A DNA stretch of 64,000 nucleotides from Escherichia phage BYEP02: the sequence record OR757454.1; one strand, 5' to 3'. The notes below the pieces were generated by a model, which made no database searches, had not been told where the DNA came from, and worked only from the letters and a program-made list of their open reading frames with translations. This document shows positions 1,434-2,532 of the stretch, piece by piece. The position numbers and the translations under genes were made by a program. How positions within the stretch are numbered: the stretch's first letter is position 1; every line of letters begins with the position of its first letter.

Positions 1434-1520
1434 GCGAGAATGGTCAAATTGGTAAAGGCACAGCACTTAAAATGCTGCGGAATGATTTCCTTGTGGGTTC
1501 GAGTCCCACTTCTCGCACCA
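1434..1520 (+). tRNA. tRNA-Leu (anticodon TAA), long variable arm, CCA encoded
   Basis: Acceptor gcgagaa/ttctcgc, anticodon loop ctTAAaa, T-arm gggttcgagtccc. Confidence 0.85.
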
Positions 1521-1525
1521 AATTT

Positions 1526-1599
1526 GCGGATATCGTATAATGGTATTACCTCAGACTTCCAATCTGATGATGTGAGTTCGATTCTCATTATCCGCTCCA
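1526..1599 (+). tRNA. tRNA-Gly (anticodon TCC), CCA encoded
   Basis: Acceptor gcggata/tatccgc, anticodon loop ctTCCaa. Confidence 0.85.
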
Positions 1600-1752
1600 A
1601 TTTAATTTACTCCGTGTAGCTCAGTTTGGTAGAGCGTCTGCTTTGGGAGCAGAATGTCGCAGGTTCAAATCCTGCAATTTAATTTACTCCGTGTAGCTCA
1701 GTTTGGTAGAGCGCCTGATTTGGGATCAGGAGGTCCAAGGTTCAAATCCTTG
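1599..1752. repeat. 77-bp tandem unit pair (1599-1675 / 1676-1752) over tRNA-Pro; 9 differences, all stem changes compensatory
   Basis: 5' 38 nt identical, 3' half differs at 9 positions that keep anticodon-stem and T-stem pairing. Confidence 0.85.
1610..1675 (+). pseudogene. tRNA-Pro-like partial copy (anticodon TGG) lacking a pairing 3' acceptor strand
   Basis: D-arm, anticodon arm tctgc-tttggga-gcaga and T-arm present; T-stem followed directly by next unit. Confidence 0.6.
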
Positions 1753-1760
1753 TATGGAGA
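1687..1760 (+). tRNA. tRNA-Pro (anticodon TGG), no encoded CCA
   Basis: Acceptor ctccgtg/tatggag (two G-U pairs), anticodon loop ttTGGga. Confidence 0.85.
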
Positions 1761-1762
1761 CT

Positions 1763-1852
1763 GGAGGCGTGGCAGAGTGGTTTAATGCACCGGTCTTGAA
1801 AACCGGCAGTCGCTCCGGCGACTCATAGGTTCAAATCCTATCGCCTCCGCCA
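1763..1852 (+). tRNA. tRNA-Ser (anticodon TGA), class II long variable arm
   Basis: Acceptor ggaggcg/cgcctcc, anticodon loop ctTGAaa. Confidence 0.85.
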
Positions 1853-1962
1853 GTTTTGCTGATTTAGCTCAGTAGGTAGAGCACAGTCGCTCCGGCGACT
1901 CATAGGTTCAAATCCTATCGCCTCCGCCAGTTTTTGCTGATTTAGCTCAGTAGGTAGAGCAC
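1808..1962. repeat. 77/78-bp tandem duplication (1808-1884 / 1885-1962) across the Ser-Thr junction, one 1-nt indel
   Basis: 3' part of tRNA-Ser plus spacer plus 5' part of tRNA-Thr repeated. Confidence 0.9.
1858..1929 (+). pseudogene. chimeric tRNA-like element: tRNA-Thr 5' half fused to tRNA-Ser 3' half
   Basis: Thr acceptor/D-arm (gctgatttagctcag...) followed by Ser variable arm/T-arm/acceptor at the duplication junction. Confidence 0.7.
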
Positions 1963-2011
1963 CTCACTTGTAATGAGGACGTCGGCGGTTCGATTCCGTC
2001 AATCAGCACCA
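1936..2011 (+). tRNA. tRNA-Thr (anticodon TGT)
   Basis: Acceptor gctgatt/aatcagc, anticodon loop ctTGTaa, CCA encoded. Confidence 0.85.
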
Positions 2012-2012
2012 A

Positions 2013-2087
2013 GGCCCTGTAGCTGGAAGGTTCAAGCAAGCGACTCATAATCGCCAGATGGTGGTTCAATTCCACCCAGGGCCACCA
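2013..2087 (+). tRNA. tRNA-Ile/Met-type (anticodon CAT)
   Basis: Acceptor ggccctg/cagggcc, anticodon loop ctCATaa; T4 tRNA-Ile uses a CAU anticodon. Confidence 0.8.
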
Positions 2088-2096
2088 AATTAATTT

Positions 2097-2183
2097 GGGG
2101 AGTTATCCCGTAGAGGTAGCGGTGTGGACTGTAAATTCATTGTCATTGCGACTCGGGTGGTTCGACTCCACCACTCCCCACCA
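2097..2183 (+). tRNA. tRNA-Tyr (anticodon GTA), class II
   Basis: Acceptor ggggagt/actcccc, loop ctGTAaa, long variable arm, T-arm ggtggttcgactccacc. Confidence 0.7.
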
Positions 2184-2187
2184 ATTT

Positions 2188-2262
2188 GGATGTGTAGCTC
2201 AATGGCAGAGCGATCGCCTGTTAAGCGATTGGTTATAGGTTCGAATCCTATCACGTCCGCCA
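2188..2262 (+). tRNA. tRNA-Asn (anticodon GTT)
   Basis: Acceptor ggatgtg/cacgtcc, anticodon loop ctGTTaa, T-arm ataggttcgaatcctat. Confidence 0.75.
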
Positions 2263-2376
2263 AATTTGTGACAACTGTCACATTAATATCTACTTGACGC
2301 GATTATAGGGGTTGAACTGATCACTCTTCTCTTAATTTCGTGTGAAGACATCTTGATTGTTGGAGTAGGTATTAAT

Positions 2377-2452
2377 GTGGCCGTAGTTCAGTTGGTAGAA
2401 CTCGAGATTGTGATTCTCGTAGTCATGGGTTCGACTCCCATCGGTCACCCCA
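2377..2452 (+). tRNA. tRNA-His (anticodon GTG)
   Basis: Acceptor gtggccg/cggtcac, anticodon loop ttGTGat. Confidence 0.75.
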
Positions 2453-2456
2453 ATTA

Positions 2457-2532
2457 CGGGGCATAGCTCAGAAGGAAGAGCAAGGACCTTCTAAGTCCTA
2501 GGTCGTAGGTTCGATCCCTACTGCCTCGACCA
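2457..2532 (+). tRNA. tRNA-Arg (anticodon TCT)
   Basis: Acceptor cggggca/tgcctcg, anticodon loop ctTCTaa. Confidence 0.8.

Follow-up and report, generated by a model that had tools for sequence, protein, structure and literature searches.

The tRNA gene cluster of Escherichia phage BYEP02: ten tRNA genes of a known T-even type, a putative structured leader before tRNA-His, and partial gene copies that are probably assembly artefacts

A cluster of transfer RNA (tRNA) genes lies between positions 1434 and 2532 of the DNA analysed here, a stretch of 64,000 nt from Escherichia phage BYEP02 (sequence record OR757454.1) that is called the window throughout. Run on all 64 kb of the window, ARAGORN called ten tRNA genes in total. 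All are on the plus strand, as are the other genes, RNA features and pseudo-tRNAs of the tRNA region described below. In order, they encode tRNA-Leu (anticodon UAA, 1434–1520), tRNA-Gly (UCC, 1526–1599), tRNA-Pro (UGG, 1687–1761), tRNA-Ser (UGA, 1763–1852), tRNA-Thr (UGU, 1936–2011), a tRNA with a CAU anticodon (2013–2087), tRNA-Tyr (GUA, 2097–2183), tRNA-Asn (GUU, 2188–2262), tRNA-His (GUG, 2377–2452), and tRNA-Arg (UCU, 2457–2532). This is very probably a standard Tequatrovirus (T-even coliphage) tRNA cluster of the slur03 / wV7 / ACG-C40 type – ten real genes in a mosaic of known modules, overlain by duplication artefacts, in which a back-up role against tRNA-cutting defences is the favoured explanation for the Tyr, Asn and His genes.

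Each of the ten genes has the cloverleaf and anticodon of a canonical bacterial-type tRNA according to independent predictors. The Rfam tRNA model RF00005 matched nine of them, with scores of 59–74 bits (gathering score 29). The exception was tRNA-Tyr, which has a long variable arm and was matched only via the related clan model tRNA-Sec, at 30.9 bits. This low visibility to Rfam is no cause for concern, because the gene is identical at 87 of 87 positions to the tRNA-Tyr gene of phage T6, the product of which has been detected by northern blot (PMC13096335). The initial annotation of this DNA, made from the sequence, had listed eleven tRNAs. Ten of these were called by ARAGORN with exactly the coordinates and anticodons listed, including the GUA, GUU and GUG anticodons on which the Tyr, Asn and His assignments depended. 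The eleventh, a partial Pro-like copy, is treated below as an artefact. There are ten real tRNA genes, not eleven.

The 3' CCA is encoded in nine of the ten genes, tRNA-Pro being the sole exception. The resemblance to the Pro-Ser dimeric precursor of T4 that the initial annotation saw in this is borne out by the junction between the two genes (...GGAGA-CT-GGAGG...), which is base for base that of T4. The 3' end of tRNA-Ser (1850–1855) reads GCCTCCG-CCA-G, compared with GCCTCCG-TAA at the same place in T4. Since the CCA of tRNA-Ser is encoded, the CCA-adding enzyme of the host would be needed for just the Pro half of the dimer, unlike in T4. By analogy with T4 biology, transcription from the T4-type promoter at about 629–805 would yield a polycistronic precursor, RNase P and further nucleases of the host would cleave it, and the 3' end of tRNA-Pro would be completed by the host's CCA-adding enzyme.

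The tRNA with the CAU anticodon had been left as either Ile or Met. Its sequence makes it most likely a tRNA-Ile2, which would be lysidine-modified and read AUA, rather than a tRNA-Met. Its best E. coli matches, 82% identical over the full length and found in more than 5400 genomes, are annotated as tRNA-Ile. The acceptor stem is GGCCC.../...GGGCC, and the tRNA resembles the host ileX type in the pairs C4-G69 and C5-G68 of this stem as well as in its anticodon stem-loop. The C4-G69 and C5-G68 pairs are determinants for TilS. The T2 gene to which this tRNA is identical is annotated as tRNA-Met.

The cluster is made up of four modules. The left half, Leu-Gly-Pro-Ser-Thr, is of the T4 type, and the right half, CAU-Tyr-Asn ... 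Arg, is of the T2/RB3 type. The third module, a structured leader followed by tRNA-His, is also found in T4-like phages of Klebsiella, Enterobacter and Cronobacter. The fourth is an open reading frame (ORF) for an HNH-type endonuclease at the site of the tRNA-Gln gene of T4. The genomic position also fits a T-even cluster: it follows the trna.2-4 side, with the promoter/leader, and is ahead of rnaD, rnaC and e.8. The initial annotation had described the set as expanded relative to T4, and it was right that T4 has eight tRNAs, including Gln and lacking Tyr, Asn and His (the T4 record has Gln, Leu, Gly, Pro, Ser, Thr, Ile and Arg). Relative to that set, Tyr, Asn and His have been gained and Gln has been lost. 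The result is not T4 plus three, however – only five of the genes are orthologues of T4 genes.

Between tRNA-Asn and tRNA-His there is a gap of 114 nt (2263–2376) for which the initial annotation had found no recognisable tRNA. Neither ARAGORN nor Rfam (at E ≤ 5) found one there either, and the possibility that the gap is a degenerate tRNA was rejected. The gap consists of a small hairpin (2267–2282) followed by a conserved structured leader of about 95 nt (2282–2376). The leader is closed by a 14-bp helix, in which 2282–2295 pairs with 2363–2376 and which ends at position −1 of tRNA-His, and it contains an inner 4-bp hairpin (2347–2350 with 2358–2361). The predicted fold of the gap has an energy of −32.7 kcal/mol (z = −4.4), and none of 200 shuffled sequences folded as well. 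The alignment of leaders is shallow, with three or four sequence types from Tequatrovirus, Karamvirus and Jiaodavirus, and in it the closing helix has six variable pairs, two of them with both partners changed, and pairing is kept at all six throughout; the inner hairpin has two covarying pairs. With this structure fixed, 99% of cells in the alignment were paired, compared to 37–56% when the partners were slid, and the covariation score was 0.23 compared to 0.03–0.14. Scans of IMG/VR and of metagenomes for more divergent homologues of the leader gave the same three sequence types and one chance hit.

The leader and tRNA-His occur together as a block, at 81–90% identity, in phages of Klebsiella (Jiaodavirus) and of Enterobacter and Cronobacter (Karamvirus). 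Edwardsiella phage PEi20, which is more distant, has a different hairpin, of 12 bp, directly 5' of its tRNA-His. We read the conserved element in the gap as a structured pre-tRNA leader, a candidate for a processing signal or for a stable RNA released from the precursor.

An alternative is that the gap is an inert spacer, conserved only through recent transfer of the spacer and tRNA-His as a block between phages. It would account for there being only three or four types of spacer sequence and for tRNA-His itself being more conserved than the spacer, and it agrees with the lack of a promoter, tRNA or Rfam family in the gap. It does not predict a fold better than that of every shuffled sequence, a closing helix that stays fully paired through six variable pairs, the covarying pairs of the inner hairpin, or the presence in PEi20 of an unlike hairpin at the same site, and we consider it a real possibility but somewhat improbable.

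Several other identities for the gap were considered. It showed no similarity to rnaC or rnaD by blastn, nor any to the leader of T4 tRNA-Gln. No promoter was found on the plus strand of 2263–2376 by a sigma-70 scan, and neither a MotA box (TGCTT) nor a late TATAAATA was seen in the gap by eye. The sequence TTGACG at 2294–2299 was rejected as a promoter element, as it is not conserved in the Klebsiella phages. A minus-strand ORF of 22–23 codons is open in both sequence types of the leader, and was rejected on inspection by eye: it has no Shine-Dalgarno sequence, and the substitutions checked within it are non-synonymous. When the leader was folded together with tRNA-His, the closing helix could be extended as CAC/GUG into the acceptor stem; this extension was not adopted, being not conserved in the Jiaodavirus type.

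The tRNA-His that follows the leader differs from that of E. coli. In bacteria, including E. coli, a G at position −1 opposite C73 is the main identity element for HisRS. The tRNA-His in the window has the GUG anticodon and C73 of a bacterial tRNA-His, with an encoded CCA, and has no genome-encoded G−1 opposite C73: the sequence reads ...taat|GTGGCCG, with a T at −1, compared with ...tagt|GGTGGCTA in E. coli hisR, that is, G−1 and then G1. A T at −1 was present in every tRNA-His of T4-like phages that was inspected (five genera), and blastn alignments of these genes to hisR all start at query position 2. A search of the literature found nothing on a missing G−1 in phage tRNA-His. The absence of G−1 and the structured leader bear on how, or whether, this tRNA-His is charged. 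It may be that the leader and tRNA-His form a distinct functional unit of T4-like phages – a tRNA controlled by its processing, a substitute or decoy against a nuclease of the colicin E5 type that cuts GUN anticodons, or the source of a released stable RNA of about 95 nt like species 1 and 2 of T4 – although this is put forward as a speculative and rather doubtful proposal.

The probable functions of the tRNAs were assessed by a comparison of codon usage, which the initial annotation had suggested. Early and middle genes were represented by 115 ORFs of slur03, late genes by 29 genes of T4, and the host by 37 genes of E. coli K-12. The A-ending codons that correspond to the Leu, Gly, Pro, Ser, Thr, Ile2 and Arg tRNAs are 1.6–7.7 times as common in the early and middle genes as in E. 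coli, and 2.9–12.9 times as common in the late genes. The Tyr and Asn codons are 1.4–1.7 times commoner in phage than in E. coli. The His codons are rarer in phage (0.82 and 0.48 times the E. coli usage), so the leader and tRNA-His module may not serve ordinary codon supply. Codon supply thus accounts well for the seven classical tRNAs and poorly for Tyr and Asn, and it does not account for His, with the late set in this comparison consisting of T4 genes. The seven classical tRNAs would act as a boost to the supply for A-ending codons of an AT-rich phage.

For tRNA-Tyr, another role has direct published evidence, obtained with the identical gene of T6. The tRNA-Tyr of T6 rescues infection from Septu, a defence that cuts tRNA-Tyr (Chihara et al. 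2026, PMC13096335). T6 becomes sensitive to Septu when its tRNA region is deleted, and T4, which has no tRNA-Tyr, cannot escape (PMC13096335). Because the window's tRNA-Tyr is identical to that of T6, this role probably transfers to it. Colicin E5 targets four tRNAs, all with GUN anticodons, and those for Tyr, Asn and His are among them; the idea that tRNAs of coliphages offset such nucleases is an existing hypothesis (PMC10264068). By analogy with these cases, the Tyr/Asn/His trio would most likely be a back-up against defences that cut tRNAs.

Some observations weigh against this division of labour. Lys codons are in 2.2-fold excess in the phage, the largest excess in early and middle genes, and there is no phage tRNA-Lys, so the model of codon demand is imperfect. 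Mutations conferring resistance to a nuclease, which have been proposed for other phage tRNAs, were not seen in the Tyr, Asn and His anticodon loops as read in the window, hisR being the only host gene actually compared. All three loops presumably match those of E. coli.

That all ten tRNAs, including Tyr, Asn and His, serve only for codon compensation in an AT-rich phage would be another account, and the excess of A-ending codons for the classical seven over the E. coli sample, together with the smaller excess of Tyr and Asn codons, speaks for it. Use of His codons below that of the host and the excess of Lys codons with no phage tRNA to read them are not what it predicts. T4 manages without Tyr, Asn and His, and a tRNA-Tyr identical to that of the window has a demonstrated role in counter-defence. 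This account is therefore unlikely, and a defensive back-up remains the preferred explanation for the trio. The tRNA-His module bears on the question of why phages carry tRNAs that are not called for by codon usage.

The partial Pro-like copy of the initial annotation (1609–1677) is not a tRNA gene. Rfam matched it over 1617–1675 with 49.6 bits, to model positions 8–63 only, and ARAGORN did not call it. It fails as a canonical tRNA: the T-arm is followed by the spacer between Gly and Pro, and there is no 3' acceptor strand. The copy is the first half of a 77-bp tandem duplication (1598–1674 and 1675–1751) whose unit contains the spacer and tRNA-Pro from position 1 to the T-arm. The duplication (1598–1751) is absent from slur03 and T4. 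The extra copy (1598–1674) carries a second natural allele of tRNA-Pro, being 100% identical to the sequence in PST, PP01, HY03 and vB_EcoM_112, and the changes that set it apart from the other copy, which is of the slur03 type, are compensatory ones within the T stem and the anticodon stem. As there are two natural alleles, the overlapping ends of the segments joined here derive from two templates.

The tRNA cluster has a second pseudo-tRNA of this kind, which was missing from the initial list: a hybrid with the 5' part of tRNA-Thr and the 3' part of tRNA-Ser at 1853–1935 (Rfam, 25.3 bits). It arises from a duplication of 77/78 bp (1807–1883 and 1884–1961), in which the first copy has GTTTTG (matches to RB3 and AR1 suggest this form) and the second has GTTTTTG, as in slur03. 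The leader of the cluster contains another apparently artefactual duplication of 77 bp (629–705 and 706–782). Downstream, a duplication of 81 bp (3150–3230 and 3231–3311) doubles the terminator hairpin after rnaC and is absent from T4 and slur03. There is one other duplication of 81 bp in the window (24130–24292), in frame within an ORF of 295 amino acids and absent from slur03.

These duplications are part of a pattern that covers the whole window. Tandem Repeats Finder reported repeats in two copies at intervals of 0.2–4.8 kb, about 33 with a period of 77 and two with a period of 81. An exhaustive scan of periods from 30 to 400 found only 77 (30 cases without indels) and 81 (2 cases). Besides those described above, 77-bp duplications were located at 4104–4258, 6701–6855, 7595–7748, 8459–8612, 10012–10166, 11245–11401, 13428–13581, 15945–16098, 18163–18319, 19663–19827, 22150–22301, 26930–27083, 29242–29395, 30464–30617, 31782–31935, 33217–33370, 36887–37049, 40130–40284, 42311–42464, 42545–42699, 43693–43846, 45928–46083, 50029–50183, 53778–53933, 54290–54443, 56275–56428, 58981–59135 and 61851–62002. 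Aligned by blastn with 64.5 kb of slur03, the window consists of 36 colinear segments, each of which restarts 77 bp (in two cases 81 bp) before the end of its predecessor. Both 81-bp duplications are at segment boundaries. Identity to slur03 varies from segment to segment, between 96.6% and 100%.

Many of the junctions disrupt genes. Twenty-three of the 35 are wholly inside slur03 ORFs, including those for NrdD, gp46, gp44, gp43, gp42 and gp41, and because 77 is not a multiple of three, each 77-bp junction within an ORF is a frameshift. The DNA polymerase gene (45467–48240), which encodes 898 amino acids in slur03, is split by the duplication at 45928–46083 into ORFs of 188 and 713 amino acids; the 188-residue fragment had no exact match in the protein collection. 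A phage with genes broken in this way could not grow. Nor do the duplications have the properties of a genuine tandem duplication or segmental amplification (confinement to one locus, a whole gene in the unit, and an intact genome). The Pro junction was covered by no phage record searched, the best covering 71% of the query. The Thr/Ser junction had no match in IMG/VR, and among the matches listed, phage records align with it only as two rearranged pieces.

The simplest reading of this repeat pattern is one of artefacts: the hybrid of Thr and Ser, like the partial copy of Pro, was probably produced when segments were joined with untrimmed overlaps of 77 bp. In de Bruijn-graph assemblers, 77 is a common largest k-mer, and the pattern would fit an assembly of this type, with k=77, of a mixture of close strains. 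Three points count against an assembly artefact. The call is drawn from the pattern of repeats rather than from reads. The two copies of a duplication frequently differ (90–98% identity), unlike a simple untrimmed overlap of exact k-mers, so that a mixture of strains or a stitching step must be supposed. A k of 77 does not account for the two duplications of 81 bp.

It is nevertheless extremely unlikely that either the Pro copy or the Thr/Ser hybrid is a real pseudo-tRNA that arose when phages in a co-infected cell recombined unequally or, as in the Septu escape mutants of T6, through amplification driven by a homing endonuclease: although a different natural allele with compensatory stem changes is what recombination between two phages would be expected to give, and tandem amplification of the tRNA region does happen in T6, a period of 77 bp is seen again and again, about 30 times across the 64 kb, for the most part in genes and out of frame, in what would not be a viable phage; the unit amplified in T6 is 718 bp and contains the whole tRNA-Tyr gene and segB, while no whole gene is doubled here; no segB-type endonuclease gene is inside the tRNA cluster of the window; and searches of phage records turned up neither junction, nor did IMG/VR yield the Thr/Ser one. 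With an assembly artefact as the preferred explanation, partial gene copies, frameshifts and short tandem repeats elsewhere in the window are to be distrusted. Near 45388, about 215 bp of slur03 are absent from the window (the small ORF 43.1, between the genes for the translational repressor and DNA polymerase); this loss looks like an ordinary strain difference.

The regions that flank the tRNA genes are also of the T-even type. The putative promoter and leader of the cluster (629–805) has the same sequence as the region 5' of tRNA-Gln in T4 and T2, with TGCTTTA at 635–641, and we take it, from what is known of T4, to be a MotA-dependent middle promoter. It is followed by TGGGAAT (806–812), a stump comprising the first 7 nt of the tRNA-Gln gene of T4 and T2 and the sole remnant of that gene. 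Next is the free-standing ORF of 202 amino acids (819–1427), of the HNH type, which is annotated in slur03 as 'HNH endonuclease' and has a weak Pfam HNH match (17.3 bits, under the cut-off of 21.4). tRNA-Gln is absent because this ORF occupies its position. At 806–1427, then, a tRNA gene has given way to a gene for a homing endonuclease.

Downstream of tRNA-Arg is an ORF of 116 amino acids (2551–2901), which slur03 and T2 also have and which T4 lacks at this position. The homologue of rnaD, the species 2 stable RNA of T4 (2901–3015, 99% identical to T4 by blastn), begins at the stop codon of this ORF. It is followed by the homologue of rnaC, the species 1 stable RNA (3022–3160, 98.6% identical by blastn), which has a tRNA-like T-arm at its 3' end. 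Neither homologue has an Rfam family. The unit is closed by a terminator-like hairpin and T-run (3211–3243), repeated at 3292–3324 through the 81-bp duplication.

The tRNA content as first described was broadly right, but the arrangement is well known and already annotated. The closest relative considered, slur03 (NC_042129), is about 99% identical to the window. The same ten tRNAs are annotated in it in the same order, and it shares the HNH ORF upstream and the 116-amino acid ORF and rnaD/rnaC region downstream. Identity is 100% over 2013–2532, and the aligned tRNA region is identical once the duplications are removed; slur03 has none of the three tandem duplications (77, 77/78 and 81 bp) that the window has in the tRNA region. 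The block from the CAU tRNA to tRNA-Arg (CAU-Tyr-Asn-spacer-His-Arg) was at least 80% covered in 186 phage records, 184 of them with at least 99% identity. Tequatrovirus records with this block include fPS-65, KIT03, HP3 and ACG-C40. In T2L, RB1 and RB3, clusters that contain Met(CAU), Tyr, Asn and Arg but lack segB were described by Brok-Volchanskaya et al. 2008 (PMC2330249), who found the tRNA-Asn gene of T2L to be the preferred cleavage site of SegB, the homing endonuclease of T4. The tRNA set is thus not new: the slur03 record annotates all of it, and its Tyr/Asn portion has been in the literature since 2008 (PMC2330249). T-even phages are already known to differ module by module in their tRNA content, and there is little new in the set itself.

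The cluster in T4 has the order Gln-Leu-Gly-Pro-Ser-Thr-Ile-segB-Arg-rnaD-rnaC. The Leu, Gly, Pro and Ser genes (identical) and Thr (one mismatch) of the window are orthologous to those of T4, at 99–100% identity, and the upstream promoter/leader, the CCA-less Pro-Ser junction and the terminator are shared. The Ile and Arg genes of T4 are different sequences, non-orthologous to the CAU tRNA (47/75 positions) and Arg-UCU (48/76) of the window. Compared to T4, the window has the HNH ORF in place of Gln, lacks segB, and has in addition Tyr, Asn, the leader, His, and the ORF between Arg and rnaD.

T2 is closer in the right half of the cluster, with agreement at 75/75 positions for the CAU tRNA, 86/87 for Tyr, 75/75 for Asn and 74/76 for Arg, and it has the same downstream ORF of 351 nt. 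T2 keeps Gln and has neither Thr nor His, and its Arg gene directly follows Asn, where the window carries an insertion of about 190 bp containing the leader and tRNA-His. T6 has the identical tRNA-Tyr gene in a cluster of different order (Gln-Leu-Gly-Thr-Met-Tyr-segB). The leader of about 95 nt and tRNA-His, with T at −1, are shared at 81–90% identity with Jiaodavirus and Karamvirus phages (phiA85, JD18, Pet-CM3-4 and AS6). In those phages the leader and tRNA-His are found between tRNA-Gln and tRNA-Ser, and the remaining cluster is different and larger.

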